The translations under genes were made by a program, and so were the position numbers. The notes beneath the pieces were generated by a model that did no database searches, was not told where the DNA came from, and saw only the letters and a program-made list of their open reading frames with translations. A stretch of 60,948 nt of DNA, counting the filler. It is 10 parts of 10 records of this genome, joined end to end, with 100 filler letters (N's around TTAATTAATTAA, not from the genome) between each part and the next. Parts side by side here need not be neighbours in the genome. Positions count along the whole stretch, not along the records: positions 8,231 to 15,327 come from SRR15195285_5520; 9 more parts are not named here. The stretch is one strand, 5' to 3'. This document shows, piece by piece, positions 1,056 through 34,100 of this stretch. Numbering within the stretch: position 1 is the stretch's first letter; each line of letters starts with the position of its first letter.

Positions 1056-1252
1056 CCCTCCCCCCGCCGGGCTGTGCTACCCGTCCTCGGACTACCCCTC
1101 CGCTTGGGCTGGCAAGGGAGGAGCTTGGGTGGCGAGGGGTGGTGGCTATCTGTGAGGGGAAGGGCAGAGCGCCCGTTGATCCCTTGGTGGATTGGGGGGT
1201 GGGGGGGTGCTGTCGGGTGGGTGGGGTTGTGGTTGAGTAGGGGGCGTGGGGG

Positions 1253-4200
1253 ATGTCCGAGATCCTGCTGCGGTGGCTGAACGATGAGGTGCATCTGCGC
1301 AACCCGGTGGTGGACTTCGAGTCGGACTTCTCAAATGGGTACGCCTTCGGGGAGCTGCTGGATAAGCATGAGATGCAACCGGACTTCCACCTCTTCATCG
1401 ACGGGGACCACCCCGACGCGAAGACGAACAACTTCGTGCTGCTCGAGCCGACCCTGCGCACGCTCGGGGTCAAGTTCGACTCGCGCTCCGCCAGCCAGAT
1501 CATGGTGGGTCAGGCCGGCGCCGCGCAGAAGCTGCTGTACCAGGTGATGGTGGCCGTGCGCGGCTTCGAGCGCAACGTGCTCGGGAACGACCCGGCCGCA
1601 CGGACGGTCAAGGTCGGCGGCAACGCCCTCGCAACGCTGCAGACCAACGCGACGAAGCAGGACAAGCACGACTCGAAGATGCACGACATCTTCGAGCAGC
1701 GTCTGCGCGAGCTGTCCGAGAACCCGAACAACATCATGACCGCTATGGTGACGCAGCGCTTCGAGGAGGAGATGCTGCGGCAGCACGAGCAGGCGACCGA
1801 CGGGGCGATGGCGGCGCTGTCCAATACGGTGGACCACCGCCAGGGCATGCGCCAGGCCGCCCTCGAGAGCCTGCGCCGCAACCACGACTTCCTGGCGGAC
1901 TGGGAGGAGAAGGGCCGCATCGAACACGCGGAGAACCAGCGGCGTCAGCGGGAGGTGGAGCAGGCCGAGCTTCGCTACGAGCTTGCGATGAAGGAAAAGC
2001 GCGCCCGCCGCTTCCGCGAGGGCAACACCCGCGCTGCCCACGCCATGAACTCAGGCATCGACGAATTCGAGAAGACGCTGGCTCGCATCGGAGCCGACGC
2101 AGGCGGCGGCGAAGACCTCGTGCCGGCTGTTGACAGCGAAGCGTCGCCGGCCGTGCACCTATCGACACTCAAGACCATGCTGCCACACCGCAAGGCGATG
2201 GAAGAAGAGGCCCGCCAGTACCTGGGCAAAGTCAAGGAGAAGAAGGCAGAGGAGGTCTACGCCCGCAAGGAGCGCGAGCGCCGCCGCCGCAAGGCCATGC
2301 TGGAGCAGCAGCACACGCAGGCGGCGATGGAGCAGAAGCGCCGCGAACAGCTCTTGGCCGAGAAGCTTCTCAAACAGTCCTCCCAGGAGCGTAGGCTGGG
2401 CGAGCGCTTGGCGCAGACGCGTCTGCACAAGGAAGTGATCAAGGAAAATCGCCTCATGCGCGAGCAGCAGTATGCAGCACAACGCCAGAAGGACTACGAC
2501 GAGGTGCTCGCTCGAGACGCAGAGCTGGGTAAGCAGAAGCGGGCCGAGGCCGAACACGAAGTAGCTCTCGAGCGGGAACGTCGGGAAGAAGCCGAGGCTG
2601 CTCGCCAAGCAGAGAAGAAGGTGCAGCGCACGGAGTTGTGTCACGATATCTTGACGCAGGCGGTTGACCTGGCATTGCACGTCTGTGACCACCGGGCGCT
2701 ATCCGGCGGACCGATGGCACCGAAGGAATGGCGCGAGGTCAAGCTGCTCTTCGTGAAAGGACAGAGGCTGCTGGAGGAAGGCGATGGCTGGGGCGAAGCT
2801 GTTGAAGACGTCGAACCCACCGACGAGACTACTCTTGTCTTGGACGAGCAGGCCCTGTCCGACTATCTGCAAGACACGGGTGAGTGGGCAGCAACCGCCG
2901 GCGGCGGGTCGAACGCAGTGCTCGGTAAGATTCTTCAGGACATTGACCTCACCGTCAACCCGCCCGTGGACAAGACGCGCCCCGAGAAGCTGCCACAGGG
3001 CCACCTCAAGGTCGTCATGACCGGCAAGCCATTCAGTGGCAAGTCTCTCCAGGCCGCAAAGCTTTGCGATGCGTATGGCCTCGTATCGATCGAGCCTCTG
3101 CAGCTCATGGCTGCCATCACAGCGGAGGACTGGGAGCCCTTCGTCGCCGAAGACGAGGAGAAGGGTCTACCACCTCTAGAGGCAGAGGCCAACGAACTCG
3201 CCGACAAACTTGCCGAGGAGCTGGCAACTGCCGATGGTGCCAGTGACGAAACGCTGGCTCGGCTGGTGGCACTCGAGATCCGCAAGCTGACCTTCGATCA
3301 AGAGTGGGTCGCACCGGAATCTGTCGAGCCGGCGGAGGGCGAGGAGCCCGCAGAGCCGGCACCTGGCCAGTGGATGCTCAAGTGGAAGCCCGAGGACGAG
3401 ATCGGTGCGGGTGGCTGGGTGCTCGAGAGTTTCCCGACGACGCCAGCACAGGCCGAACTTCTCGAGGCCCAACTTTCCGGCATCGATCAAGCCGAGGTGG
3501 ACGGACCACCTCCAGAGACTGGTGTCAGGGCGATGATTGCACCAGCCCCTGATGCCCCTGAGCGCCCGCCGCTAATCTCCGCCGTCGACGTGGTATTGCG
3601 CTTCGACGTTCCTGACGAGGTCGTAACAGAGCGCGCAGCTGGTCGGCGCGTGGACCCAGAGACTGGAGCCATTTATCACCTGGTGAACAATCCACCACCG
3701 GATGACGAGGCGCTCAAGGAGCGACTCCAGACCATAGACGACGCATCCAATGACGAGGCGCAGCTGCTCCACCGCTGCCAGACGTTCCGCGACCAGGAGC
3801 CAGCTATGGAGGAATGGTTTGCGAACTTCCTAACGCTGCAGGCAGTTGACGCCTCTGCTGATGAGCAGGCTGTGGAGTCCACGATTACGGAGGTGCTGCA
3901 GGCAATTGTCGACAAGAAGAATGCACCGCCGGAGCCCGACCCTGCAGAAGCAGCAGCTGAAGGTGATGCAGCTGAAGCTGAAGCTGACGCTGAGCCTGAG
4001 GCCGAGCCCGAGGCCGAGCCCGAGGCCGAGGGTGCCGAGGCCGCCGAGGGCGAAGGTGCGGCTGAGGGTTCGGCCGAGGCTGAGGCTGAGGCTGAGGCTG
4101 AGGTCGAGGCCGAGCCTGAACCTGAGCCACGAGTGGTACGCGACTTGACACTTGAGCTGGCTAAGATTTTACAAGGCCAGTGGGAGCGCATCGAGGTGGA

Positions 4201-6094
4201 GTTCCAGAAGCGTGTGAAGCGCGCCTTCCGTGCCATTCGCACCGAGCGAGGTGCCACTGTCGAGCGCGTTGCGGAGCTTTCTAAGTTCTTCCTGGATTTC
4301 GTGCGGCGACCGGACGATAAGACGTCCATTGTCGAAGACTGGCAGGCCAAATTCAATGCGCTGCCGATCGAGATGCGCGCTGACAACGAGACGAAGGCAG
4401 AGCTGCACTTACGTGCGGAAGAACTGCGAGACCAGCTTTGGGAAATCTGTGACAACCGCAAAGTGGAATGCGAAAGCACTAAAGACAGCATTGCGTCAGA
4501 CATGTGGGTGCGCGACCACGCTCGCGTCCTGGAAGAGCTGATGGTCACCGTGTTGCAGGCTGAGGTGGATCGCTACACGCGCACCAAGGCGATTATTACC
4601 GACTACTACTCAGAACGCGGCGATGATGACCCCACGATTGCCGCCATCGCCGACAGAGTTGACGCAGTGCGTGCTCCAGCAGTATCTGAGGGCGAGGCCG
4701 AGGAGGAAGCGGTTCCTGAGGAGGGTGAGGGCGAGGCTGCGGAGACGGAACTCTGCCCAAACATGCTGGCCGCGTTCAGCAAGGCCATGTCAGTAGTCAA
4801 CCCACCAGCTGAGGAGCCTTCTGACGAGGACGCAGGTGGCAAGAAGGGCAAGAAGGAGGAGGAGGAGGAGGAACCGGAGCCTCCCCCGGCTAACTTGTTG
4901 GCTGCGGAGATGGAGGATGCTCTGGCTACCGAGGACAAAATTTTCCGTGCCCGCGCAGACAAGCTCCTAGCGCAGTGCCGGTCATTCGTCCAGGACATGC
5001 AGACAATGGAAAATGGGACGATCGAGAAGATGCACGGATTGATTGGGGAGCGATTCAGTGCAGAGGTTGGCGCAGTGAAGGCTTTGCTCGAATATGTTGG
5101 TGGCGTCATCGAGCACGGCTCCGAGTTGCACTACAGGCTCGAGTTGCTGTCCGAGGACTTCATCGTCGACGAGGAGGCGCTCATGGCTGAGCTGCCAAAA
5201 CCCCCGCCCCCGCCCCAGGTCATCGAGCCAGCACATGAGAACACGTTCACGATCGACCAGCTCAGCAAACTCTGGGCACAGCTGCAGACCCTCACAGCCG
5301 GTGCGACGACCGCTCCAGCAGATCAGGTTGGCGCGATGCTGGGCGGCCTCTGTCAGCTCCCTGAGAACGTCCCTCTGTCGTGGGTCGGGTCGGACGCAGC
5401 GAAGATGACCAACATCGCCCGGGGCGGCAGCGCTGACAGCGTGCTGGATATCCGACAAGTGCTTGTCAGTCTCGCTCTCGCGTCAGTCAGCATGCCTTCC
5501 AGGAAGGATGTGGGCGATTTTGTTAATGGCCTGGGCGACGGACCAATGGACAAGGAGTCCTTTTGCAGCGCTTCGTGGTGGTTCAACGAAGACGACACGA
5601 GCGCGGATGCTGGCTTCCCCAGAATAGCATCGCTGAAGGAGGCCGTGCTGTTTGAGGCACTGAAGGATGCCGAGGGCCTGGTCTCTGTGCCGCTGCTCGA
5701 GGGTATGCTGCAAGGATCACTCAAGGCTGCGGCAGCAGCGGTAGCCGCAGCGAAGGTGGAGAAGGCCGCACAGAAGCGTTTGGCGAGGGCAAAGAAGAAG
5801 TTCGACGCGGCTGACGCGGACTCCTCAGGAACGCTGGAAGGAGATGAGCTCGAAGAGCTGGCGATGTGGGTCTTCAAGGCACTCAACCCAGAAGATAAGG
5901 AACAGGAGCAGGGCGAAGAAACTCTTGAGGAGATGAGCGAGGAGGAGAAGCAGGAGGCGGTGGCGAAGCTGGTGGACGAGGCTGACGAAAACAATGACGG
6001 CAAGGTCGATTTCGACGAGTTCAGCAAATGGTACACCGCCACCTGCGTCAAGATCGCTACCTTCCGCAGAGAGCTCGCGCAGAGCACGAAATGA
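1253..6094 (+). CDS. SPEF2: Sperm flagellar protein 2 / central-pair CPC1-like protein, 1613 aa, apparently single exon
   Basis: N-terminal CH-like domain (MSEILLRWLN...FESDFSNGYAFGELL...NNFVLLEPTLRTLGVKF). Coiled coil with RKERERRRRK. Adenylate-kinase-like domain (GKPFSGKS P-loop, GWVLESFP, RAAGRRVDPETGAIYH lid). ETKAELHLRAEELRDQLWEICDNRK motif. C-terminal EF-hands (DADSSGTLEGDE, DENNDGKVDFDE). Confidence 0.92.
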   Translation: MSEILLRWLNDEVHLRNPVVDFESDFSNGYAFGELLDKHEMQPDFHLFIDGDHPDAKTNNFVLLEPTLRTLGVKFDSRSASQIMVGQAGAAQKLLYQVMVAVRGFERNVLGNDPAARTVKVGGNALATLQTNATKQDKHDSKMHDIFEQRLRELSENPNNIMTAMVTQRFEEEMLRQHEQATDGAMAALSNTVDHRQGMRQAALESLRRNHDFLADWEEKGRIEHAENQRRQREVEQAELRYELAMKEKRARRFREGNTRAAHAMNSGIDEFEKTLARIGADAGGGEDLVPAVDSEASPAVHLSTLKTMLPHRKAMEEEARQYLGKVKEKKAEEVYARKERERRRRKAMLEQQHTQAAMEQKRREQLLAEKLLKQSSQERRLGERLAQTRLHKEVIKENRLMREQQYAAQRQKDYDEVLARDAELGKQKRAEAEHEVALERERREEAEAARQAEKKVQRTELCHDILTQAVDLALHVCDHRALSGGPMAPKEWREVKLLFVKGQRLLEEGDGWGEAVEDVEPTDETTLVLDEQALSDYLQDTGEWAATAGGGSNAVLGKILQDIDLTVNPPVDKTRPEKLPQGHLKVVMTGKPFSGKSLQAAKLCDAYGLVSIEPLQLMAAITAEDWEPFVAEDEEKGLPPLEAEANELADKLAEELATADGASDETLARLVALEIRKLTFDQEWVAPESVEPAEGEEPAEPAPGQWMLKWKPEDEIGAGGWVLESFPTTPAQAELLEAQLSGIDQAEVDGPPPETGVRAMIAPAPDAPERPPLISAVDVVLRFDVPDEVVTERAAGRRVDPETGAIYHLVNNPPPDDEALKERLQTIDDASNDEAQLLHRCQTFRDQEPAMEEWFANFLTLQAVDASADEQAVESTITEVLQAIVDKKNAPPEPDPAEAAAEGDAAEAEADAEPEAEPEAEPEAEGAEAAEGEGAAEGSAEAEAEAEAEVEAEPEPEPRVVRDLTLELAKILQGQWERIEVEFQKRVKRAFRAIRTERGATVERVAELSKFFLDFVRRPDDKTSIVEDWQAKFNALPIEMRADNETKAELHLRAEELRDQLWEICDNRKVECESTKDSIASDMWVRDHARVLEELMVTVLQAEVDRYTRTKAIITDYYSERGDDDPTIAAIADRVDAVRAPAVSEGEAEEEAVPEEGEGEAAETELCPNMLAAFSKAMSVVNPPAEEPSDEDAGGKKGKKEEEEEEPEPPPANLLAAEMEDALATEDKIFRARADKLLAQCRSFVQDMQTMENGTIEKMHGLIGERFSAEVGAVKALLEYVGGVIEHGSELHYRLELLSEDFIVDEEALMAELPKPPPPPQVIEPAHENTFTIDQLSKLWAQLQTLTAGATTAPADQVGAMLGGLCQLPENVPLSWVGSDAAKMTNIARGGSADSVLDIRQVLVSLALASVSMPSRKDVGDFVNGLGDGPMDKESFCSASWWFNEDDTSADAGFPRIASLKEAVLFEALKDAEGLVSVPLLEGMLQGSLKAAAAAVAAAKVEKAAQKRLARAKKKFDAADADSSGTLEGDELEELAMWVFKALNPEDKEQEQGEETLEEMSEEEKQEAVAKLVDEADENNDGKVDFDEFSKWYTATCVKIATFRRELAQSTK

Positions 6095-8130: not shown

Positions 8131-8230
8131 NNNNNNNNNNNNNNNNNNNNNNNNNNNNNNNNNNNNNNNNNNNNTTAATTAATTAANNNNNNNNNNNNNN
8201 NNNNNNNNNNNNNNNNNNNNNNNNNNNNNN
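8131..8230. other. Artificial contig spacer
   Basis: 44 N + TTAATTAATTAA (stops in all six frames) + 44 N. Confidence 0.99.
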
Positions 8231-8738
8231 ACTCAAGACAAGACTGTGCATGCATCAGCTCCCTGCGTCGCGCGCTTCAGCATCAGCATCAGCATCAGCA
8301 TCAGCAGGGATCATTTGACGCACAGTTCCGGGGCCCTCACCACAGCTTGCCGCCGCTGCATTACACAAACGAGGGCAACCAAGGACTACTGGTACGGCAG
8401 GCTCCGAAGCGAAGGTCGGTGAGTTAGCCCGTGCATCTCGTTGTGTGTATGGCCGCCGGGCACGGCCACCACAACTCGGTGATGCACGCGTTGGTTGCGC
8501 GCGTGAGCTGCGTGGAAATGCGTATGACGCAGTGGGTTGAACTAAATTGCGCGCCACACTCTGGGCGGGCGGATCCCTAGCACCCTGAGGCTGGCTCCGA
8601 GCCCTGCAGCTAATCGCCCGCTGAATGTGGGGGGGCTGGGATGCTGAATGCTGGGGGCTGGGAGCTTGGTGCTGGGCGCCGCACAGCTTAGCATGTCATC
8701 TGGCTTAGCTCCTTGGTTTCTCTTGCGCGCAGGCCGTG

Positions 8739-11700
8739 ATGCCCGCACGAGCTTCATTTTGGGCGCAGATTGTGCTCGGCCTGCTCATCTCAGCAGCGAC
8801 TGCAACATCGTTTAAACGCGGAGCGGCCATCGGCGACGACCATCCGTCCGCACGTAACATCTCCGCGCTGGCAGATTGTGTATCATGGGGCTACAACTGG
8901 GGGAGCTCCTACAGTGCTCATCAGGCCTCCGCGTGGGACAACATGGAGTACATCCCTATGGTGTGGAACGACAGACACTTTGCCGACAATGGTTCATGGA
9001 TAGGTCCTGCTACAGCGAAGTTCAATCATTCACAAGCCTTGTTGGGTTACAACGAGCCAAACTTTCGCGAGCAGAGCAACATGACGCCAGAGCAAGCGAG
9101 CGCAGCGTGGCGCAGCGTGGAAAGCCTTGCCACAGAAAATCACATCCCGATTGTCGTCAGCCCAGCCATGAACTTCAATGACAATCACGACCCCATTGCA
9201 TGGTTGGACGAATTTTTTTTGCGGTGTCGAGGATGCCGCGTAGACGCGATCGCTGTGCACAGCTACACGTGCTATTGGGACTATCTCGCGCATCACCTGT
9301 CGTTGTACAAGAAGTATGATAAGCCACTTTGGCTGACTGAGTTTGCGTGTGCGGACTCACCGGAACGAAAAGGCGAAGTGGGGCAAATGGAGTACATGCG
9401 AGAGGTCATTCCACACCTCGAATCTGACCCGCAAGTGTACCGGTACGCCTGGTTTAGTCACGATTTTGAATTGGGGCCGCCGGGAGAAAACGCGGCGTCG
9501 TTGGTCCGCGATGGCGGCCTCACACCACTTGGGCAGCTGTACGGCTCGTTTGCTGGGAGCGCCCTTCCTTCGCCTTGGGTAGCTCCTCTGGACTGCCACG
9601 CATCGGAATGGGTCGATCGTGACTCCCCGAGTGAAGCATGCACAACGACGTCGCTCGGAGACGGAGATACGTACAAGCTGGTGTTTTCCGATGAGTTCGA
9701 GCAGGAAGGCCGCACATTCAGAGACGGCGACGACCCTCGGTGGACGGCGATGCACATGCATCCGTACACTACACGGCAGATAAACTTTTACAACGATAGC
9801 TTGGCAGAGACGGTGGATGGCAAGCTGCGAATTCGTACTACTGCGCAGGACGTTAGAAGTCAATACTATGCACCGGACGGAGAACGCAAACATTTCACAC
9901 GACCGTACAGTAGTGCGGGAGTAAATTCTTGGAACAAAGTGTGTTACACAGAAGGCATTTTAGAGGTTTCGGCGCAACTGCCAGGCAATCCCGACCAACC
10001 GGGCTTATGGCCAGCAATCTGGTCTATGGGCAATTTGGGACGTGCAGCGTTTCAGAAGAGCAACTTCAAAATGTGGCCGTACAGTAGCCCTCAAACTTGT
10101 TACGTCAACGCGTCCGATCGCACCGCAAACTCTCAAGACAATCTCAGGCAGGATGCGTGTGCAGGACGGCGAGCACGTGGCGCTCCTGAGATTGACGTGC
10201 TAGAGGCTGCTCCTGGTCCAAACCTTCTCCCTGGATGGCAACTATGTGTCAACAGCTCTGATCCAGACTTGTGTCTGACGGAGTATTCTACGTGCAAGAA
10301 CGAATATGCTGAGAGCATTAGAAAGGGCGCCTGCCCACCAGGAAGTGGTGACCGTGCAAAAGGTGGAGACGTGGACGGCATGTATGCCTGTAAGCCGCTA
10401 GTAGCTCAAAGCTACATGATGTCTCCTGGGTTTCCAAAGTGGTCATACGAGGAGCCAACTGCAGGCTGCTATCCCCTTGGCGATCAATGGTATCCAGAAA
10501 TGACAACTGCGTCTCCTGACGTGTATGGGCCAGACACTGTACAGGGTAATGGGTTTTACGGGTTAGAGATTAGCAGGAACACTTTTGACACCAGTGGTGG
10601 AAGCAAGGAGGACAGACCTGAGCACTCAGAGAAGCTTGCGGACGTAGTTGGTTATTCTAGTGAAGAAATGAGTGAAGCGGAAGAAAACTTCTGGACTGAG
10701 TATCTTCCGATGTTGAGTCGCGAAACTTCAGCAATTCTGCAGAACAGGAAGGTCCCCGAACTGTGGGATCATTTTGCAGTGCGGTGGTCTGGATGGTTTC
10801 AGGCGGAAGTAGCTGGCGTCTACCACTTTTCGGCTGTTGCTGATGATGGCTTGCAGCTGAAAATTGCAGAAAGCGACGTGCTCCATACTACGCATGACCC
10901 ACAAGTGTATTCAGTTGGTCTCCAAAAACGGCAAGGTGTTGTAGCTTCAGGAGTTGGCGAGATTACACTGTCCGAAGGATGGCATCGCTTGTTGTTAGAG
11001 TATTACGATAACTATGAGACTGCGTTCCTGGAGCTGCAGTACAAGGTACCTGGGCAAGGTGAAGAGCTGTCAACCATCTCGCAGAATTTGTTGTGCAGGT
11101 CTGCTCCAGTTGACAATGTCTGTGAGGCGCCGGGACTACTCGGTGAATACTACTTCTACGCTACTGCTCCGCCAGTGCCTCTATTGCACGTGCTCCCGGA
11201 CGTGTCGACGCGAGAGCCTGACTTCACCAGAGTTGACTTTACACACAACAACTTGCGGCATGTTTTTTTCTCAGACAACACACCTTCAACAGGCTCAGTG
11301 AGGTATCGAGACTCGTGGAAGCAGTCGACTGATGGCCTTACCGCTTACACCAACATGACTACCAGGCAATGGCAGAGGCAGACTCTGTATCGAATGGAAT
11401 GGAAGCAAGGACCAGAGGGTTACATCATCTGGGCCATTGATGGAGTCAAAAGGTTTCAGATCAATGCGTCAGCCTTGCATGTCGACCGACCTTTGCACTA
11501 CAAGACTCAGCCACACGGTAGCACCATCCCAGGAAAAGGTCAACCGACTGGAGGCACGTTCAACGGTCCAGTAATCCCTTACGAGCCCATGTAAGTCTCC
11601 AGGTTTTGTACCATGAAGTGAAGACACTCACTATTGTTTGTCGGACAGGTACACAATTCTCAACACTGACGTGAGCAGCAGCGGTTGGGGTTGGCACCCG

Positions 11701-14700
11701 TGCCCGTCATTCTGCACCTGTTGCGACGACTGTAAAAACGCCAGCTGCACCACATGCTATGATCCAGAACGAGACCCTGAGCGCAAGTACAACTTACGGC
11801 AGTGGCTTGCTGAGCTCTGCGCGACCCTGCCAGCAGATTATCTGATAGACTACGTCAGAGTCTACCAGGAAGAAGGAAAAGAGAGCGTTACCTGCGACCC
11901 TGCCGACTACCCTACCCGCGAATGGATTCATAATCACGCCAACGACTACCAGATCGACCAAGACCTTAGTGATATCGCCGGACTGCCCATCATGGAAGAG
12001 CCGTTGAAATACGTCAACGCAGGGGGGCACGAGTGCAGTTCTGACGATGAGTGCGGCCATGGATTGTGCAGAGAGTCGACGTGTGAGTGCGTCAGAGACT
12101 GGACAGGGCCAAAATGCCTCGCACAGGCAGCAGGTCCGAGTCGCCTCTGCCAAGAGGTTACCAACCTCACCAAACAATCAGTATGCACAGCCCCTCGCGG
12201 ACTTGTGATCAACCGTGTGCCTCAGCTGCAGATGATGATTGATGCACAATGTAGCTTACTTCGATCAGCTCACTCGGCTGGAGCTAACTATGAGCAAACT
12301 GCTCGTGTCTGCGACCAAGTTGATCCAGTGCAAGGGGTGTACGGGCAGTGCAGCTCAGAAATGCGCGCTGATCTTGTGTTGCAAGCCTGGAGTGACTTGA
12401 CCGGTGGACAGCAGTGCTGTGCAGGGCTGGGTTCCAAGATATCGGAATTTGACAAGTATGATGCTTCGCTGCGGCACTTTAACTGCGTCGACACGCGCAC
12501 TCAAGTCGTCAGCTTCTACGCAGCCGGAATGTTGATTTGCGTTGCATCGGTAGGACTTCTGCTTTGCCGTCCAAGGCAGCCGACGAATCACTCCGACCGT
12601 GCACACGATGCGAGGGACAGCCGTCAGCATGAAATTGAACAACGGGCGCCTCAGCATAAATGTGAGCGTTCCAAGCTAATTGATCAGATCAGCTCTATCG
12701 TCAACTCGAATGAAGATCAGATTCAGCAGCAGTATCAGCATCTGCTCGCCGGAATTATGGATTCGTTGCAGCAGGTGTTTGGCTTTCAGGCCGACAGTTG
12801 CGCAAATCAATTGGAACACATCCGCTCGTTGCTGAAGTCACAGCTTTGTCGTATGCGATTTTCAAAGTCGGCAGCTGTGACCTACAAAGACGCCATTGTA
12901 TCTTTGCATTCCCGCCAGTTCCAAGTCTTCTCAAAGTGGAGTACAACCGTGGTCAGCAGCAACGTGGACACTGCAACGTCCTCAGAGGAGGCTGAGCTTC
13001 AGCGATTGGTTGACCTCTGCCTATGGTGGGCAATCTGGGGTGAAGCTGGAAATGTTCGTTTTGCTCCTGAGCTTCTGTTGTTTATCTTTGCGTGCGCACG
13101 ACAGTTCTACAACAATGAGCGAAGCAACACTGACTCGGCATACCCGTGCGCTCGGAGGGGAAACAACAATGACTTTCTACAGTATGTGATTCGTCCCATA
13201 TACCAACAGATCTTCCGTTGCACGGCAAGTGGCCTTGATTCAAATGGACGGCCAGTCCTGCATTCGCCAGCTATGGCCCCACCGACGGCGCCAAACTACG
13301 ATGACTTTAACGAAATGTTTTGGCGATCGTCCAGACTGCTGCAGCTTCGTGACTCTGAAGGATCAGTGATACTGTCGGCAGCAGACGACGGCAAGGCAAT
13401 CATTGATTCGTCGGTATTTCCGAAGTTGTGCCGAGCAACTTGGGCTGCATCTAAGACCTTTAAGGAATTTCACAGCTGGTCTGGTATCGTGGTGGGCTTT
13501 GGACGCGTGTGGGCGATTCACGTGATTGGCTTTGCAGCGCTGGTGATGTGGGTCTACGAAAACACGATAGCTTCTATGCTAAAAGTAGCTGGAATCATTT
13601 CGTCAATCACATCACTGGTCTGCCAATCTGTGTTGCTATACGTGTTCGATTCGAGACCCTCCGGCATTTTGCATACCGGCGTAGAGTGCGCAAGGGCGTG
13701 TGCTCAAACCTGCGTTCTAGTGCTTGCCGTGATCTACACAGAAGATTATGAGGACGAGGCCGACGGACAAGCGGCAATCTTAGCATCTGCAGTATTGCTG
13801 TCACTATTGGATCTACTATTTGTCGTGCCGATAACTACACGCGGTAGTGGCTTCGAACGGGCTCTGCAACCAACCATCTTTGGTCAGACAAGGAACGTTG
13901 CGGCTGCGGTGTTTTGGCTTGCTATCCTGTGTGCGAAGGCGTTCTGCTTCAAGTTACTGATGTTGCCTGGCTTTGTGGCAGCTGGACGACAGCTGGAATC
14001 GCAGATGGCTGCTGGTATTGACGAGCCACTTGATCTCGGTTCGTCCATCAAGATCACCCGTGCCATGCTAACTTGGGCACCGCCATTCATTGTGTGGACG
14101 GCTGATACTTTGATGTGGATGAGCGTTGCGCTAGCGTTGATCAGCACCGTCACGGCCTTTCGTGTCTACGGGTGTACTGCTGCTGCGAAGGCAGCGTGCT
14201 CCATGAGATCGCGAGGCATAGCAATGGACTTGGTGCCACAGATGTTTGTGAATCAGGTCATTTTGCCGCAGACGCGACATTCACGCAGCGATGAGCCATC
14301 CACAAAAGCAGACACAACCGATACTGCAGCGCCAGAAACCAAGGAAGTGAACGCAGTAGCGAGAGAAGTGATCGGCGAGTTTCCAATGTTTGCAGGACTG
14401 AAGGATTCAGCAGGATTGCTTGATGACCTGAGTTCGCTGCTTGTTCCTGTCACATACCCACCGCACACATTTCTGGTCGAGAAGGGAGAGATAGGCGACC
14501 GAATGTGGTTTATCCAGCAAGGCAGAGTCGAGATGCTCAGCAACAAGCATGACGAGCTGGCGTTCATGCTGAAAGGCCCCGGAGATTACTTTGGCGAGAT
14601 GGCAGTGCTGCATGATGAGCCGCGGAAGTCGTACATTCGCACTGTGGAGCACCTGGATGCACTGCAATTGGAAAAGACTGCGTTGCAGTCGATACTCGCG

Positions 14701-15327
14701 AAGCATCCTGCACTGAAGTTGCAGCTGTCTGCGTCAGCATCATTGAACCTGATGCCTCAGGAAATGTCCGCGTTTGCATCTACATGGAACGCTGTAATCG
14801 ACTCAATGACTGCCAATGACGTGTTGAGCGTGACAGAGGTGACCAACCTGCGCTTCGGAAGCGCAGCAGGCGATGACAATGTGGTGACGAATGTACCACC
14901 GATTTTCAGCTGCGACGCAGAGGTCGTTGAAAAGGCGTTGCCAAAAGATGAGGAGGCCAGGCGTCGAATCATTTATGTTGCCAAAAGTCTTCATATGCAA
15001 ATGCCCACGCCATTTGAAGCCGGGGAGATGCCAGGACTAACAGTGCTCGTGCCTCACTATTCTGAGCCGATTCTACTTTCAGCGAAAGAACTGTGGGAGG
15101 ATCTGATAGATACAGGTGAGGACGGTCTGAAGACTACTTTGGTGCAGTATCTAGTCAAATATCATGCGGAAAGCTTCCGAAATCTCCTAAACCGCTTACA
15201 GTTTGATAGCATCGATAGCGTTGGAAAGAGTCAACGTGTTGATTTAACGCTGATAGAGAAGGCTCTTGGCACGAAACAGGACGCAGAAGCCATCGCAATG
15301 AACACGGAGACACAGCAGCAGCAGCAG
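8739..15327 (+). CDS. GH128 + KRE6/SKN1-type GH16 (with PA14) + EGF + TM + 1,3-beta-glucan synthase (FKS/GT48) with cNMP-binding insertion; exons 8739-11590 and 11649->15327; 3' truncated
   Basis: A 58-nt intron at 11591-11648 (GTAAGT...GACAG) restores IPYEPM-YTILN in frame. GH128 motifs SWGYNW, LLGYNEPN, KPLWLTEFA, YRYAWF. KRE6 motifs LVFSDEF, SWNKVCYTEG, GLWPAIWSMGNLGRA, RGAPEIDVLEA, IDYVRVYQ. FKS motifs FGFQ..S..NQ.EH, WGEAGNVRFAPE, NYDDFNE.FW, EARRRI, MPGLTVLVPHYSE. cNMP motif GDYFGEMAVL..EPR. Confidence 0.9.
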
Positions 15328-15427
15328 NNNNNNNNNNNNNNNNNNNNNNNNNNNNNNNNNNNNNNNNNNNNTTAATTAATTAANNNNNNNNNNNNNNNNN
15401 NNNNNNNNNNNNNNNNNNNNNNNNNNN
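15328..15427. other. Artificial contig spacer
   Basis: 44 N + TTAATTAATTAA + 44 N. Confidence 0.99.
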
Positions 15428-25137: not shown

Positions 25138-28100
25138 CTACTCTGCCTCCGGCATGCATCGTGTCCCAGCAGGTGGGACGGCCTCAGGTACTTCAGTTGC
25201 GTTGTGTGCGTCATGTGCCAGCGGACTGTCAGCTTTTTCTTGGTCTTGATCTTGGCATCCGACTCGCTCTGGCGTTGCGTTTGAGTTGTGCTGCAAGGCT
25301 TGTTTAGATACGCCAGGTCGTGACGAGGACACAGTTCTGGCACCACCCGCCTCTGCGTGCTGCTGAGCTTTCGGCGATGGAACGCTGGTGTCTGCGTGCT
25401 GCTCGTTTGCTGTTTGCGTTTGGTCCAATGGATCTGAAGCTGGGGACAGATCTGTGACCTTGGCAACATTTCGTGCCATGATGGTCTGCAGTTCCTCTTC
25501 TGCAAGCACTTCCTCAAGGATAACCTCCCCTGTATGCGTAATACGGTCGATCCATGGGCCTCCCGACTTCTGAGAACCTATGCGGATTCGTGTATAGCCT
25601 TCGACAACCTGCTCTTCCAATGCGGTTACGACCATACCGCGTCCCAGCGAACCTACAATGTTTGAGGCCTGGGACGCCTCGGCATGCACTGTCGCCTGAT
25701 CGGCCACTACCATGTACATCTTATGGCCTCGTATCAGCGTGGAGAGCTCCTTTTGAGAGACTCTGCCATCTCCGTTGGCGTCGAGTTTGTCAAACAACTC
25801 AAACAGCTCCTCGCGGTCCAGCTCGCCGTCTCCATCAGCATCGAAGCTGTGCCCAGAGCCGTGCTGGGTTCTGTGAGCCTTCGCCCGCAGATCGTTGCAT
25901 TCTCTCATCTGGGCATGCTTCTTTTGGTGTTTGGACAGGGACCTTGTCATCAGCGCAAGAAATATCCCGACGACGAATACAACGATCAGCATCACAAGCC
26001 CGTAGGTGACCGCACTACTAGCGTAAAACTGTTCACTGGCATTGATGTGTAGCACCACCATTAGCACCACCATCACAATCACATCCATCAGATTGTCTAT
26101 GTGCTCTACGTATGGCTCGACCTCGATCTCGAGGCAGACGAAGCATGCCAGTGCCAGCACAAGTGCGAGACGCCAGTCAAAATTGTCGTCGGCGTTGTAA
26201 CCGCGCAGATAAATCACGTTCACAAGGTTTTTCCTCATGAGCAGCATCACAAACCACCACCATCTGTTTGGGTGATAGTAACAGTGCAGGTCGACGAAGT
26301 AGTCGCGCTCAGTCTCGGTTGACTTGGCGTTTTTTACGTCGATTAGGTCTTTGCGTTCCGTCTTGACGAATGTTTTCGCATGCCCTCGTGCGCTTGCTAC
26401 GCGCTGTTTCAGGTTGTGTGCACGCTGCGCAGGGGGTGCGGTATTGTCGGCTCCTTGGAGCGGCTCGACCTGTTCTTCCAAATCGTGGTCAGTCGCAGTC
26501 TCGAACACCTCATCTTCCGGAATGTCATCTGGGCCGCGACCTGTGGTTGCGTTGCTGTTGTTGTCCTGCAGATGTTTTGCCTTGACAAGAACCTTGTGGA
26601 CACCGTTAGTCGAGCGATCCACGAGCGGTAGTTCGGGGTTGTTGTAGAGCTTGAACAAGTACTTGACAGCGGCAAGCGGGGCTACGAATATCACTAGAAG
26701 CAGCAGAAGAGAAAGAGTGATGGTCATGATGTGCCATCCAGTACCGCATTCTTGGGCCAAGTCCCGTTTCAAGTACCTCTTCTCGTCGCCTGGCACGACC
26801 GCACTACAGAGCAGCATCTCCATCGCGCTGCGAGAAAAAGGCATGTAAATGAACATAGCAACCCGGACAAAAGCGCGGCGCTCATTCCATGCTTCGAACA
26901 TTTGTCCGTCTTTTTTCTCGAAGGCCATCAAGGCTTTGTGCAGCACTTTCCACAAAATATGGTGCACCTTCTCTGAAGCAGTCAGCAATTGTTGCGTCCG
27001 TTCGTGATGTGGGTGCTCATTGGCCCAGAAGTTAGCCTGCTCTAGGCTCATCAGGTCGAGTTTCTCACTGGCAAGCACAAGTACAGTCTGTAATTCTGAG
27101 TCTTCCTTATAACCGTACCACACATCATCACCGTCGTGATTCGTGTGCCCATCTGCCCCGGCAGGTTTGTGTTGCTCAGGGGCAGGCCAATGAGCAGTAG
27201 TACCGGTGCGCGTGTCACCCACATGGGTGATCACAATTGTATCACCGACGTGGAACTCGAGCTCACCGCTTTCGGGATCTGGCATGTGGTCTTGAATGGC
27301 GCGGCAGACGACTCGCTGTAGATCGAACAGGGTGCGCTTGTCTTGCATCTCTAGCTCACGCTCGACAGATGCGGGGATGTGTGCCTTGATCCATTTCTCT
27401 ACACCGCTGAACTCGTGCAGGTCTTGCAGCTTGTTCCAGGCGGTACCACAGAGATGAACACAGAGAAACAAGTAGGCCGGCACGAATAGGACTTTAAGGA
27501 AAAACTGCCCATAAACACCCACGGGTAACGTGCATTGGCCGAATGATTGCCCTGGGTCAATGTTGAATAGGTCAAACATCCCTGCCGCCCCAGAGTTTAC
27601 AACGAACGAATCTTTGCCAACCAGCGCCAGCGTCTGAACCAGAAACAGTACCGTGTCACTAGCGGCGTTCTGCTTGAGGTCGCCAAGACTCTTCATCACC
27701 TGTAGGCCTGCAATGAGCAGGTATGTGATCATTTGAATCAGTATTGGTCCGATCCTGATGCCATCACATTCTGTACAGTGTCCTTTGATCCGGACGTAGC
27801 TAACGTCAGGGTCCGACTCGTCGCAGCCTGCGCAAATCATACCTACGTGATGTTCTGCGCATTTGACAATATCCGGTTTGTCTGCAGTGGGTAGTCGGCA
27901 AATATCGCCACCTACTGATGACGCAGCTACACAGTGCTCTTTATCCCCACCGTGGCATGGGACTGCGAGTGCCAAGATGACATTGCCTTCGACGTCACGG
28001 TCAGACAGACGGAAAATCCCGCCCTTGGAGTCTGCACCATGCTCCAACATTGCAGGAAATGTCGTCACATAGTATCCTTCGATCGGACAGATAGGAGAAG

Positions 28101-31100
28101 CTCCCTGCCAACCGCCAGGACATGTCTGGTGCGTCTGATTGTTCCACAGTGGAGAATCAGGTATTTCGCCTAGACTAACGTTTGGTGATAGCATGTATTC
28201 TGGCGTCCCGACCTCGTCACTAATCCATTGAGGCACACTGATCTTGCTGCACTCTTGGCAACCGCGGCTGAAACTGTAGAAACCAGGTGGGCATGCACAT
28301 TCGCTCTCATCACGTGCACCCGAGAATTGCATCTCTAATCCTGCTGGCGGAGCAATTGAATGTATTGCCCACACTAAGCATGTGCTACACTTGAGCCCAT
28401 CTTGACCGTACGTGCCTGGTGGACAGTTGTTGCAATGCGACTTGTCCGGGGACGGAACCTGTCCAGGTGGACATGTTTGGCATATGAAACCAGTCTCTGC
28501 GTTGCTATAGCCTGACTCGCACACAGTGCACGAGGATGCATCATTGGTCGTCATATCGGTTGAGACTTCAGGTGTCATGCCCGAGGGACAGGGGAGGCAA
28601 GCGCGGCGGCCTGATGGGTTGATTTGGCCGAGCCGAGCTCGGACCGGACGATCATACGTGTCTCTGAGGCATTCGCACGCGGTCCCATCTGCTGAGGGGC
28701 TCTCCCCTGTCTCGCAAGTGACTGGAACCGGTTCGAATGCGAGTGTCCCTAAAATGTAGTCATCATCAGAGATTGCAAAAGAGAATGTCTGCATGATTTC
28801 GCTACGTTCAGAGAGCCGTCGTCCAGCGCCACCATTGTCAAGCTGTACTTCATGAACACCGCCATTTGAGTCCCCGACCTCCAGCACGCCAACCCATCCT
28901 GCCGCATCAATCGTTGCACTATAATCGCCGGGTAACAGCACGCACGTCGTTGGGTGTTCGATTTCATCTATGAACCAGCTAATGGTTCCGTGATCCTGCA
29001 TGTGCACATACACGACTACTTGTTCACCAACAGGAGAAGTGAACTGCGCCTGCCCGTGTTCGGCGCAGATCGAATCGGCACATTCTGGAGACCCTACTCC
29101 CGAGACAACTCGCAGAGCAAGCAGTGTATCGTTCAACGTAGTGACCTTGATTGCAGTCGCCATCCCGCGGTAGACCAGCCTGTGCACTGTGCTATTGCCG
29201 GGAGGCGCAACGACATCCCTGTGCACTTGCGGCCCCACCCACGGGTCGTTTGACTCAAACGTGGCAAGCCAATCGTTGTCAATTTGCCAATGCACTACGC
29301 AGCCTTGTGGTGGCAGTATTTCCAGCGCCACAACAGACTGCGATGGCGCGCACACGTTCTGGACCTGAACGCACGTCCACGATAATGTCATGGGCGATGC
29401 GTACAGCTGTGCTGCATCAGAGTCTTCGGCTTCGCTCCCACTGTAAGTAATGACTATCGTCATATTGTCGCCCACCGAAGTAATCTCTTCTCCAAGACCA
29501 GACACCCCCCTATATGATAGGTATTGGCCTGGTGCACTGATCATGCAGCTGCCCGATGCTCCATCGTGGTTGGGGTCATACTCGAACTGCGTGTCAATGC
29601 TTCGTAAATTGCACGTGCCCATAGACGAGTAGAGTGTACACACTCCATCCGGGCAATATTGAGCAAAATGGGCCCCGGCCGCGACGGCACGGTCATTGCA
29701 CGATGCCTCTGTCTCGCCAGGGAACTTGGATGCTGCATCACCTCCAGCAATCCGCTGAGAATTTCCGCGGCCATCGCAGCCACTAGAGGCAACGGTGTCG
29801 TACTCGCGCGTTCCGATGCGCACCATAGCCTCATAACCAGCATAGAATCGGGCTTCTTGCCAACTTTGGTCGCTCACCTCGAGGTCGAACGCTACAATTT
29901 GGACCTGCACAGCCTGCCCTTCACCGCATGAAATCGTATGTGTCATTTCTATACCACCCTCGCTGCGCTCCACGGGCAAGAAACTGGTGCCCACCGAGGG
30001 TTGCATGTAAGTAATAGTAGCAGATGGGAGGTCTTCGCGTAGCTCGGTGAGCACAGGGGCTTCGAAAATTCCTGATGCCAGCTCCAGATGCAGACAGCCG
30101 GTTTCAAAAGGCACCCTCACCCATGAACCAGCAGAAGAGATGCAACCAGACCCTATGGTACAACTAGGAAGCGAGGCGTTGGCCACAACATGGCCTGTCA
30201 GATTCTTGACGGTTGCAGACCCACCTTGGCAGGTGTTGTCTGGTTTGGTCATCAAGTAAAGGCTGTGATTTCCCGTGGGTGTTCCAAACAACTCAACCAG
30301 CTCGTCTGACCCCATACCATCCGACAACGCAGAATTGACACAGGCAGTTCCCCTAGCTACGCCGCAGTGCGCTTCCAAGTCCGTGGCATATGTGCGCGTG
30401 GCCACATCTACAGCTCCGCGAACGGATGTTCCGAAGGCAAACGGGCCACCGGCACACTTGCATGTATCGATGTCATCCAAACAAAACGAATCTCGATCGA
30501 AATCGACGCTCCATGAGAGCGAAGACTCTGCAACGCCGACAGCACGCAGGCTGAGTGTAGTTGGAGCCGCTGAGTAGACAGTCACATCATATTGCTTGCC
30601 GTACGCATATGGCTTCGTATCTTCGATGATACACTCAAACGCGTCCAAGAACGTCGAGAACAGGCATTGTGATTTGCCTAAGCCCTCCCCTACACGTGCG
30701 CGGACTGATTTGGCCTCACTGACCTCGCTAAAAATCTGCATACCTGGAGCGTACTTTGCTCCGAATGCGTTGCTGTAGGTGTCTCGCGCAGTTACCCGAA
30801 CACGCCACGGGCGCCCCGCAATCGCGTTTCCGATAGCCTCGCAGTTCGAATGTCTCGGGCTGAACGCTCCCGGAACAACAGTCACAGCAATATCGACTGA
30901 GAACCACGACTCTAGTGGTGCTGTTGATACCACATCAAGAACAGTGTTGTATACACCTGCCGTAGCTGACCCGGCAAATCGCACCTGCAGCGTTGAAGTT
31001 CGCTCTCCGACTTCCGAACTGATTTCACCAGCACCATCTACATCCAGCAAGCCGTGAAAATCTCTGAAGTGTGTGTACCACGGAACGTCGCTTTCAACGA

Positions 31101-34100
31101 AGTTGAATAGATTCAACTGGGTAGTCAAAGCTTCATTTGGTTCAACTTCGACAGACAGCACCTGTGGCGTCACAATGAATGGAGACGAATCGACCGAAAC
31201 TGTGATGCTGATGGCGAAGCGTAGGATCTCACGGTCCACGAGAATGAGCACTTGTCCCTCGTCAAAGCATTCTACATCGGGGTCACAAAGAACCGCATTC
31301 GCACGCATGCGCACTTCTACGTGTAAAGATCGTTTTGAAGCAAATGTGCCCGTCTCATCGAGGTTTACAGCACGCACCTCGGCCCAGTCGACAGTACTCT
31401 GGATATCATACACCTGAGCGCTTGCTGCACCATCGTTGATGATTTCGATCGTGCGCTTCACATCACCACCCCTGGCGACCACGGCATATATAGCCGAGCG
31501 CATGTTGCCAGAACAGTCTGGCCTGTCAGGTAGCATTGGCTGACTTAGTGTGACAGAAGCGCATTCTGTTTCCACCAGCAGTTGGATGCTCGTGCTGCGT
31601 ACACCACCAAACGTCCCGCTGCCCACTTCAGCGCCTTGATCATCGAGCAAAACCCAGGAAGGGAGGTCCGATGGCAAGCAGTCGGAACATTGTCCTTCGA
31701 GTGTCCAGCAGCCGGCACGGAGTCGCGGTAGGGCAACCGTGAAGCCCCGGGCAGAAGAAGCCGGTATAGGCACACCGTTTGGCAGTGTGAACGAAACGGA
31801 ATATTCTCCTGGGTTCGAAATTTCGAGCGACCAATCAACCTCTCTCAAGCCACCACATTCACAGTTCGGCGGGTGCAAACAACTGTATTGGCATGATCCA
31901 TCGTCAACCCAAGCATCCGGACTGAAGTTGTTTGCCCAGTGACTATCGGTGCAGCCCGTCGATGTCTTCAGGAAAGATGGCGTTGTAGTGAGCATGTCTC
32001 CTACGTTCATGTGGAGAGGGAACGTGCCGACTACCAGGTCTCCACACTGCAAATGAACATCGTCACCATCAGGCCACAGCTCACCTGTGAGGAGTGCCTT
32101 TGCATGACCACTTTCTGCCCTCACAGTCTCGACAACAACGTCGTCAAGCGCAACAAAATCTTTTGCATTTGCATTGATAACTCTTCCGCCGCTATCAACT
32201 ACATTCGTCAACACGAGCTCGAGGCTTGGATTCCGGTGCTCCACTAGTAGACTAACAGTAATGACTCTGTCGGGCCTGTTAGATCCACAAATGCTGTCGT
32301 CGCTGCTTTCAATCATTGGCAGATCCATTCGCCACTCCTCTACGCCATCGACAGTCAAATCAGCGACTGAGTTTCGAGTTTGGTCTAGTAGGAGGAACTT
32401 GAAGCTGATTCGAACTTTTTCGTGGGGAAAGCCCACGCTGAACACCGATGTGAACGTTGTGGTGGCTGTGGCCCCCGCGCTATGCCCACCGAGAACAGTT
32501 CCACCGTTGCAAGAACTCAGGATATTAGACCATGAGTCTGTATCTTTCGCTGGAACGGTTCGATATGAATAAGTAGAAATGAAATTGTTGTAACCTGTCG
32601 TGGTCATTCGCCATCGTTGCGCATCAGAGTCACTGGTGCTATCTGATTCAAAGGTTGACCGATGTGAGTACACGCGCCGACCTAGCACGATGGCAATATC
32701 TCCAACGCTCGCCATCGCCAAGTCTAGAGTGACGGTTGAGTCAGGTGTCGCAGTCAACCGCGTGTACAACAGCATATTTGGTGCCTCGTCATCTGGCATA
32801 CGTGCCCATCCGTCCGCGGCTAGTGCTTCGCTGATTTCATGGCTGAACTCTGCCTGCGTTCGAATCGCAACAAAAGCTTCAGCAGGCGCCGTCATGGTCA
32901 GCTCAAGAGATTCACCGAAAGCAGAATCTTCAAGTGACACTAGCAACTTGCCAACGAGTACGCTTGGTATCTCAAAAAAGTCTCTGGCGTCACCAAACAG
33001 ATCGGTGCTGGCATCGACTGCAATAATGTCGATATCAGCTTCTTCTCCACTAGCAGTGAAAGTAAGCTCAGGCACAAGAGCATCGCCATACGTCACCATG
33101 TGCCACGAAACAGCCTGATAGGTCCCGATGCTATCATGTGCACCAGCGGTTGCATTGCAGTCATCAGCTGCACAAGCACAAGACCCAGACGCGTCCCAAG
33201 AAAACTTACGTGAATGGTGACATCGGTCGTCATTTAACGTTGCGGCAGCACACGTCTGCAGTGAAATTTCCGCACCAAAGTGAATAGCTGCATCACACTC
33301 TGTTTGAGGCTGCAGTAATACTCCATCTGGTTCGAAGTACATCCGTGCTTCAGTGGGACTGGAGACGTCAGTGGGTGGTGCTGTCGTCCACTGGCGCATG
33401 CCGTCAACAAACAGTCGATTTGCTGAGAGAATTATCTCACTTGAAAGGTCGGCAGCGCCTGCACACAGCTGTGGCATTGATAGAACATCTGGGGAGGCGC
33501 TTCCGATAGATTGAATGGGGAAAAAGCTGTTGCCCTCAGGGTCGATCACTCCAACCTGTATTGGTGATGCCGTTCTGCGAACCAAGTCTTGGATCGTCTC
33601 CATATAGTAAAGTTCACCTGCCTGCAGAGTGACGATGACTTTCTCTTCTCCTCGTGCAGACCAGCCTATCGTGCCACGTTGGCTAGTCCTCGCAATAGTG
33701 CTAGCACCGACAGCACGATGACCACCACTGAACTTCAGTATACTTGTGCTGCCACAATTGAGAACAAAAGTGTGCTCTCCCGAGATCGTAGGCGCAAATA
33801 GACCACGTATCCGCTGGCTAAAGGGCCGATCGCGAGCGTCAGAGAGCTGCAAATCCCATGTACCAACGGACGAGAAAGTGCGATTGAGTGGCCGAACGAA
33901 ATCGGGCAAAGCAGCAAGTGTCGTTACAGAAGACCAAGGCGTCCCGAACCAACGCTCCAGTACAGCTCCGGCAACGAGCACATCAGCATGATCGCCAACA
34001 AAGATGCGATCATACTCGCAGGAGCTGTCATCATCAACCCAAGCTTCGGCGTCAAAGTTTTCAGCCAGTGAGTCACGACATCCAGATGGTATCGCCTCCT

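Follow-up and report, generated by a model that had tools for sequence, protein, structure and literature searches.

Can a eukaryotic glucan synthase carry a receptor for a cyclic nucleotide within its own polypeptide? This question is raised by a gene on the + strand of a 7.1 kb contig (SRR15195285_5520), which occupies positions 8231–15327 of a 60,948-base stretch of DNA, here called the window. The gene encodes a predicted FKS-type beta-1,3-glucan synthase of glycosyltransferase family 48 (GT48), and an earlier reading of the letters, referred to below as the original prediction, had described a complete cNMP-binding domain inside the synthase. That description was borne out, as the whole Pfam profile was recovered (E 3.6e-16) and both a structure model and Foldseek agreed with it. 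All coordinates below are those of the window, and residue numbers follow P0001, the protein of the + strand frame beginning at 11638.

The cyclic nucleotide-binding segment and its insertion site

The segment encodes a genuine and complete cyclic nucleotide-binding (CNB) domain, far beyond what chance would produce. The search with Pfam cNMP_binding (PF00027), which the original prediction had proposed as a check, matched residues 938–1023 (nt 14449–14706) with 59.3 bits (gathering cut-off, 27.5), and the match spans profile positions 2–89 of 89. With phmmer against the PDB, the domain hit an apicomplexan cGMP-dependent protein kinase (PKG) at E 1.6e-24 and the CNB domain of SthK at 4e-15, with further sequence matches to mammalian PKG I, PKA RI-alpha and a mycobacterial CRP. 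In the ESM Atlas, the best scores were 0.77–0.80, to ion-channel/CNB clusters, which is below the level for more than a lead.

The fold was then evaluated on an AlphaFold2 model of window positions 14215–15327, built with a 20-row alignment (A4). The mean predicted local distance difference test (pLDDT) score of the model was 74.6, and ten-residue blocks over the CNB domain scored 74–97. In detail, the model places strands between model residues 77 and 153, a phosphate-binding cassette (PBC) helix at 128–133, and further helices at 154–163 and 165–177, so that an eight-stranded beta-barrel with its PBC helix, followed by alpha-B and alpha-C, is present as expected for a CNB domain. Foldseek superposed the model on the CNB domains of SthK, HCN, CNG and PKA, with root-mean-square deviations of 2.2–3.5 A over 129–147 columns and a probability of 1.00. 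Thus, the domain resembles those of PKG, PKA, SthK, HCN and CNG in sequence, in predicted fold, in the PBC Gly-Glu...Arg and in alpha-B/C; what differs is the host, which is a kinase, channel, guanine nucleotide exchange factor or transcription factor in the known cases and a glycosyltransferase here.

The elements around the domain are arranged as follows.

13486–14142, + strand: first FKS transmembrane (TM) cluster, six hydrophobic segments (P0001 617–835; Kyte-Doolittle scan)
14242–14331, + strand: MFVNQVI helix behind the sixth hydrophobic segment, followed by a weakly conserved linker
about 14332–14745, + strand: CNB domain, whole fold (N-helices, beta-barrel, PBC, alpha-B, alpha-C)
14581–14634, + strand: PBC, with G986-E987 at 14593–14598 and R996 at 14623–14625
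14746–14814, + strand: connector NLM, then the first GT48 helix (PQEMSAFASTWNAVIDSMTA), which aligns to Fks1 from residue 740
P0001 1048–1057: STWNAVIDSM
14938–15228, + strand: start of the Glucan_synthase domain (P0001 1101–1197; Pfam E 3.3e-16, profile 2–94 of 819)
14953–14970, + strand: EARRRI (P0001 1106–1111)

In frame with the rest of the gene, the domain follows the first FKS TM cluster and precedes the first GT48 helix. These flanks are the ones that had been described, with the TM cluster before the domain, and STWNAVIDSM, EARRRI and the Glucan_synthase start after it. The span first given for the domain, 14375–14715, was right to within a few bases, except that position 14375 itself is out of frame and stops occur in that frame; the peptides quoted for it are found in the frame from 11638, FPMFAGL beginning at nt 14380 and PRKSYIRT ending at nt 14643. 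The PBC Gly-Glu and Arg, likewise claimed to be intact, are so: G986, E987, A989 and R996 stand in register with the Gly-Glu-x-Ala...Arg of PKG PBCs, and the same residues are kept in P0020, the Picozoa ortholog introduced below.

An alignment of eight sequences was used to compare the insertion site, the measured gap being the distance that separates the first GT48 helix from the helix after the TM cluster. This gap was 171 residues in the window protein and 193 in P0020, and only 11, 14, 17 and 34 residues in P0054, P0010, P0086 and P0030, respectively, which have no insert; P0098 likewise has none. In the fungal-type counterparts, the helix after the TM cluster reads LPKRIxSKI and the first GT48 helix SQVWxxxIxSM. 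Based on that the GT helix aligns from Fks1 residue 740, and that the Fks1 GT domain comprises residues 712–1294 in the available text of its structural description (PMC11871024), the insertion lies right where the GT domain begins, at about Fks1 735–740. The Fks1 numbering of the upstream edge is only approximate, because the segment from TM6 to the linker matched nothing in the PDB at E ≤ 10 by phmmer.

On the downstream side, secondary structure assignment (DSSP) on the model predicted alpha-C at model residues 165–177 (P0001 1024–1036) and the GT helix at 181–200 (P0001 1040–1059), separated by three residues, while the linker before the CNB domain had pLDDT values below 55 and is predicted to be disordered. 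Since merely three residues part it from the GT48 domain, the CNB domain is placed in the cytosol. For the whole protein we infer a topology with the glycoside hydrolase (GH) domains, described below, outside the membrane, and the accessory, CNB and GT48 domains in the cytosol.

Relatives, distribution and selection

CNB domains at the same site, the look-out for which had also been suggested, were found in two proteins, P0020 and P0021. P0020, from Picozoa sp. SAG31, has 2701 aa and was 63% identical over the queried region in a word-based search of longer proteins; it carries PF03935, PF14288, PF00027 and a full PF02364 (residues 1138–1941, E 3.8e-180). P0021, from Picozoa sp. SAG22, is 38% identical and has the same domain order, and it ends inside the CNB domain. 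The gene comes from a marine protist; among known organisms, Picozoa are the closest to it. This lineage is uncultured, and most of what is known of it comes from single cells.

To place these relatives among other synthases, a HMMER search covered 1.84 billion representative proteins, with the best 150 matches considered, and local phmmer searches were run with four pieces of the window protein. Fifty-two of the best 150 matches were FKS-like, and one of these 52 had a CNB match (P0021). Among the 170 proteins collected altogether, 56 were FKS-like including the window's own, and a CNB match was present in 2 of the 55 others (P0020 and P0021). As a protein with both FKS and CNB parts would gain tens of bits and should rank in the best 150, the lack of other such proteins carries weight but does not amount to proof. 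P0020 was itself absent among the best 150 of the representative library, where the more distant P0021 was the top match; library clustering or content may account for this.

Fusions of KRE6 and FKS parts lacking a CNB domain were represented by the environmental eukaryote proteins P0030, P0098, P0054 and P0094, and no examined fusion protein without a Picozoa label contained a CNB domain. Word-based searches with the CNB-to-GT48 region gave 16 matches among proteins of near lengths (none with both domains), two among shorter proteins (both with the CNB domain only), and P0020 as the sole match among longer ones. In JGI metagenomes, a scan with alignment A2 returned 122 pattern matches, none of which was confirmed, and a degenerate 33-nt pattern for KG[DE]IG[DN][KR]MWFI returned no match. 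After the GT48 TM region, P0020 also continues for about 600 C-terminal residues (about 2100–2701), in which the sole match was a below-threshold one to GHMP_kinases_N (E 0.008, 16.8 bits vs. 22.3).

The conservation of the individual segments was quantified between the window protein and P0020. Identities were 69/107 in the CNB core and 17/21 from the C-helix connector to the GT segment, compared with 117/240 in the accessory domain, 83/229 in the TM cluster, 98/184 in the GT48 start and 14/45 in the linker. The CNB core is the best-conserved long segment, the three long regions flanking it being 36–53% identical.

Further, public sequencing runs were examined for strain differences and for contiguity. 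Part of the stretch is contained in 19 runs from 12 studies, and the results reported here come from four of these, including X3, X5 and X19. Run X3, from a study other than that of the best-matching run X1, holds a diverged environmental strain, whose differences were listed over 12835–15327 (2.5 kb): there are 34, of which 16 are synonymous and 18 non-synonymous. Three of them fall inside the CNB domain (14415, 14625 and 14709) and all three are synonymous, the one at 14625 lying in the R996 codon; the two just outside it (14379 and 14799) are synonymous as well. Small as these numbers are, they point clearly one way. By these comparisons, the CNB domain is under purifying selection.

The contiguity of the locus, on which the original prediction had staked its claim, was upheld by X3, in which one 2160-nt contig covers 13180–15327 with 31 substitutions and no indel, so that TM cluster, CNB domain and GT48 start are bridged by a single contig. 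Six short contigs of at least 99% identity came from a third study (run X5) and cover parts of the stretch; the gaps they leave carry no information. Because the X3 contig bridges the region without indels and two Picozoa proteins share both the domain and its place, the CNB insertion is not an assembly artefact. The metatranscriptome X19 contained one 233-nt contig (14245–14477) without any difference, which crosses the boundary from linker to domain unspliced and gives a weak hint of expression. Splicing-out, the other event that had been named as fatal to the claim, is thereby spoken against at the 5' boundary of the domain only, positions not reached by RNA being uninformative.

The gene, its contig and the rest of the window

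Upstream of the frame discussed so far, an open reading frame (ORF) at 8736–11594 has Pfam matches to Glyco_hydro_cc, the front part of SKN1/KRE6, and PA14, and the long ORF at 11638–15375 has four, to the SKN1/KRE6 end, FKS1_dom1, cNMP_binding and the Glucan_synthase start. The KRE6 domain is divided over the two ORFs, which therefore implies an intron. The remaining elements of the gene are given below.

8739–11590, + strand: exon 1, with an ATG start and a hydrophobic signal-like N-terminus
8847–9542, + strand: Glyco_hydro_cc (Pfam E 5.6e-56)
9594–10211, + strand: front part of the SKN1/KRE6 GH16 domain (Pfam E 1.1e-50, profile 92–295 of 501)
10764–10883, + strand: PA14 (Pfam E 3.7e-5, exactly at its 24-bit cut-off)
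11591–11648, + strand: intron of 58 nt, GT-AG, phase 2, with GTAAGT at 11591 and a CAG ending at 11648
11649–15327, + strand: exon 2, open to the contig end
11827–11952, + strand: KRE6 C-terminal part (Pfam profile 437–478)
exon 2, after the KRE6 C-terminal part, + strand: Cys-rich stretch
12505–12567, + strand: single-pass helix (P0001 290–310; by hydrophobicity), between the GH part and the FKS part
13003–13344, + strand: FKS1_dom1 (P0001 456–569; Pfam E 4.9e-20), which aligns to Fks1 296–463
15314–15327, + strand: CAG repeat closing the contig; the gene breaks off here

With the 58-nt intron removed, a single frame of 2177 codons, opening with the ATG at 8739, continues without a stop as far as the contig end, the KRE6 motif is restored across the exon junction, and BLASTP alignments to the KRE6-FKS fusions P0098 and P0030 continue through the junction residue 951. 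The product is a fusion of at least 2177 aa with a signal peptide-like N-terminus, Glyco_hydro_cc, KRE6/GH16 split by PA14, the Cys-rich stretch, the TM helix and the FKS part. GH16 (KRE6) and GT48 stand in one polypeptide, as the SKN1_KRE6 match is divided over both exons in a single frame, and the FKS-type identity of the GT48 part is given by Pfam matches to both FKS1_dom1 and the Glucan_synthase start. GT48 synthases have a cytosolic accessory domain, of which FKS1_dom1 forms part. The hydrophobic segments and the single-pass helix come from the Kyte-Doolittle scan, which is a rough method. In the place corresponding to the Cys-rich stretch, the Picozoa proteins P0020 and P0021 have EGF_Teneurin-like matches.

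The gene is cut at 15327 inside GT48, so that only about the first 130–190 GT48 residues are present and the second TM cluster is missing from the window. With the ortholog P0020 as query, tblastn detected no further pieces of the gene in the window, its sole match region being 11650–15210. The independent X3 contig also ends 12 nt past 15327, and short-read assemblies seem to be broken by the CAG repeat, which in the protein gives poly-Gln within a GT48 insertion. At the corresponding place, P0020 contains over 100 inserted residues of low complexity. The earlier description of the host as a glucan synthase was correct in that it is of the GT48 FKS type, while the truncation at 15327, the 58-nt intron and the fusion of at least 2177 aa had been overlooked.

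Compared with fungal Fks1/Gsc2 (GT48; PDB 7xe4 and 7yuy), the window protein is alike in matching both FKS1_dom1 and the Glucan_synthase start, in a phmmer alignment (E 4e-27) to Fks1 in two blocks, 296–463 and 740–882, and in the order of accessory domain, first TM cluster and GT domain; the first FKS TM cluster falls between the two aligned blocks. Unlike it, Fks1 has neither a CNB domain nor extracellular GH domains. The oomycete GH16-GT48 synthases share with it a KRE6/GH16 part N-terminal to GT48 in one polypeptide, whereas the window gene also has Glyco_hydro_cc and PA14. In the text available of a 2026 paper (PMC13612389, citing Judelson 2017 and Morris 2009), this fusion is said to occur in oomycetes only. 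Going by the Picozoa proteins and the window gene, the predicted GH16-GT48 fusion seems to reach beyond them. The same text describes S. pombe Bgs3 and the KRE6-like GH16 protein Ghs2 as an obligate pair near the glucan exit (PMC13612389). Here too a GT48 synthase is paired with a GH16 protein; the two are covalently joined in the window gene, whereas in S. pombe they are separate proteins and there is no cyclic-nucleotide domain.

The window as a whole consists of ten contigs joined by nine N44-TTAATTAATTAA-N44 linkers, which had escaped the original prediction; these contigs are unrelated to one another. The linkers flanking the contig of interest on both sides are the following, and seven more lie elsewhere in the window.

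8131–8230: linker before the contig
15328–15427: linker after the contig

As the contigs are joined by linkers, gene neighbourhood across a linker is meaningless. Several genes of the window are cut at contig ends. On the + strand at 1241–6091 lies a gene for an SPEF2/CPC1-type flagellar central-pair protein (CH_2, SPEF2_D5, SPEF2_C and EF-hands), which fits a flagellated protist as source. An ORF of 3183 codons without a stop on the - strand (25141–34689) has single EF-hands near its C-terminus as its sole Pfam matches. The other contigs carry, by Pfam, a sulfatase, a Na/Ca exchanger with a PH domain, an MFS transporter, an RSN1_7TM protein and ankyrin repeats.

Proposed nucleotide regulation and the alternatives

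Everything that sequence can test fits a second-messenger role of the domain, and nucleotide binding and switching, which we infer from this, are plausible. A nucleotide-regulated glucan synthase, in which the CNB domain would act on GT48, is the explanation towards which the balance leans modestly. In the proposed mechanism, the CNB domain would sit in the cytosol beside the catalytic domain and bind cAMP or cGMP, and binding would cause the usual rearrangement of PBC, hinge and alpha-B/C. Such a nucleotide-driven movement of PBC, hinge and alpha-B/C is known from other CNB proteins. The movement would be passed on through the short conserved connector, the GT48 domain would shift relative to the membrane channel, and glucan output would change, while the fused outer GH domains might act on the emerging glucan by trimming or branching it.

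A guess at the sign of the effect is activation, on the model of yeast Fks1, whose GT domain is displaced by Rho1. As far as the accessible text of the sources goes, Rho1-GTP binds between the GT domain and TM7–15 plus the loop 1511–1521 (PMC11871024) and displaces the GT domain (PMC11871024; PMC12715860). This Rho1 site is far from the insertion site of the window gene. The latter source, a 2025 review, sets the dependence of Fks1 on Rho1 against bacterial c-di-GMP and draws the comparison of Fks with BcsA in the sections available (PMC12715860).

BcsA with its PilZ domain may work alike and is the nearest functional analogy, not a case of membership. Both are membrane polysaccharide synthases of cellulose-synthase-like fold that have, or in the present case are predicted to have, their own receptor for a nucleotide second messenger beside the catalytic domain. 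They differ in family (GT2 vs. GT48), in receptor (PilZ vs. CNB) and in ligand (c-di-GMP vs. presumably cAMP or cGMP), and no PilZ match was present among the Pfam hits of the window at E ≤ 0.01. The PilZ domain of BcsA is C-terminal to the last TM helix, and the CNB domain of the window protein is at the start of the GT domain. That no GT48 enzyme gated by cAMP or cGMP is known, as the original prediction had stated, agrees with our search of the open-access and bioRxiv literature, which yielded no GT48 or glucan/callose synthase with a cyclic-nucleotide domain; nor did any of the titles listed there for Picozoa name a glucan synthase.

Several observations weigh against regulation by a nucleotide. 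Following the PBC Arg, the window protein has K-S-Y and P0020 has S-S-Y, atypical residues compared with the T/S-A-T/S of the aligned PKG domains, which makes binding, ligand affinity, specificity and the choice between cAMP and cGMP less certain. As read from the sequence, alpha-C contains no aromatic residue as an obvious cap. Such a cap is generally needed. Further, only three sequences with the insertion are known, from a single lineage, and one of them, P0021, does not extend as far as the PBC; the greater part of the GT48 domain is missing from the window, and a complete one is found only in the ortholog P0020; and the RNA evidence is a single short contig, with DNA carry-over possible in the X19 library.

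The first two of these observations would be explained if the segment were a CNB-homology domain that no longer binds nucleotides and serves as a spacer, as a dimerisation or partner-docking module, or as a sensor of another ligand. Parallels are the CNB-homology domain of KCNH channels, which is blind to nucleotides, and those domains of the CAP family whose ligands are of another kind. The strong conservation is of no help here, as it fits any function and not only nucleotide binding. However, both sequences long enough to include the PBC retain the Gly-Glu, Ala and Arg that contact ribose and phosphate in known CNB domains, the change in the R996 codon of the X3 strain is synonymous only, and the closest solved sequence relatives are the nucleotide-binding domains of PKG, SthK and PKA. 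We therefore regard loss of nucleotide binding as doubtful, though the foremost of the alternatives.

A further alternative grants the binding of a cyclic nucleotide and assigns to it the control of trafficking, localisation, turnover or oligomeric state of the synthase, and thus overlaps with the nucleotide-regulated synthase favoured here. The data do not separate catalytic from non-catalytic control, and the long, flexible N-terminal linker speaks for this alternative; against it, the conserved three-residue link from alpha-C to GT48 resembles a direct mechanical coupling, which is suggestive only, and we consider such non-catalytic control improbable.

That the CNB segment is absent from the mature protein, as a chimera of assembly or gene model or through splicing, is very improbable: the window is a chain of short contigs with an incomplete gene, the gene has at least one intron and RNA cover is confined to 14245–14477, but the independent X3 contig runs through TM cluster, CNB domain and GT48 start without indels, the same-site domain recurs in two Picozoa proteins from separate single-cell assemblies, the segment is in frame, is the best-conserved long one and differs internally at synonymous sites only, and one RNA contig crosses its 5' boundary unspliced.

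Regulation of a GT48 synthase by a nucleotide would be new to what is named for these enzymes in the available parts of the 2025 review, whose comparison table gives Rho1 GTPase activation and drug inhibition for Fks1 (PMC12715860). If the nucleotide-regulated synthase is real, a CNB domain three residues upstream of GT48 would be a case of small-molecule allosteric control of GT48 enzymes and would offer a natural handle on how movement of the GT domain gates glucan extrusion. It would be a convergent counterpart to the way in which c-di-GMP and PilZ gate bacterial cellulose synthase, would act through a site other than that of Rho1, and would couple one signal both to the synthesis and, through the fused GH domains, to the remodelling of extracellular glucan. 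The GH16-GT48 fusion supports, in Rosetta-stone fashion, a pairing of synthase and remodeler as in Bgs3-Ghs2.

A GT48 synthase with a built-in predicted cyclic-nucleotide receptor is so far seen only in Picozoa-type protists. Whether cAMP or cGMP directly switches this Picozoa-type beta-glucan synthase through a CNB domain at the TM-GT48 junction, which would make it the first polysaccharide synthase of a eukaryote to have a second-messenger receptor of its own, is evenly poised on the present evidence. From these sequences, Picozoa appear to make a regulated extracellular beta-glucan.

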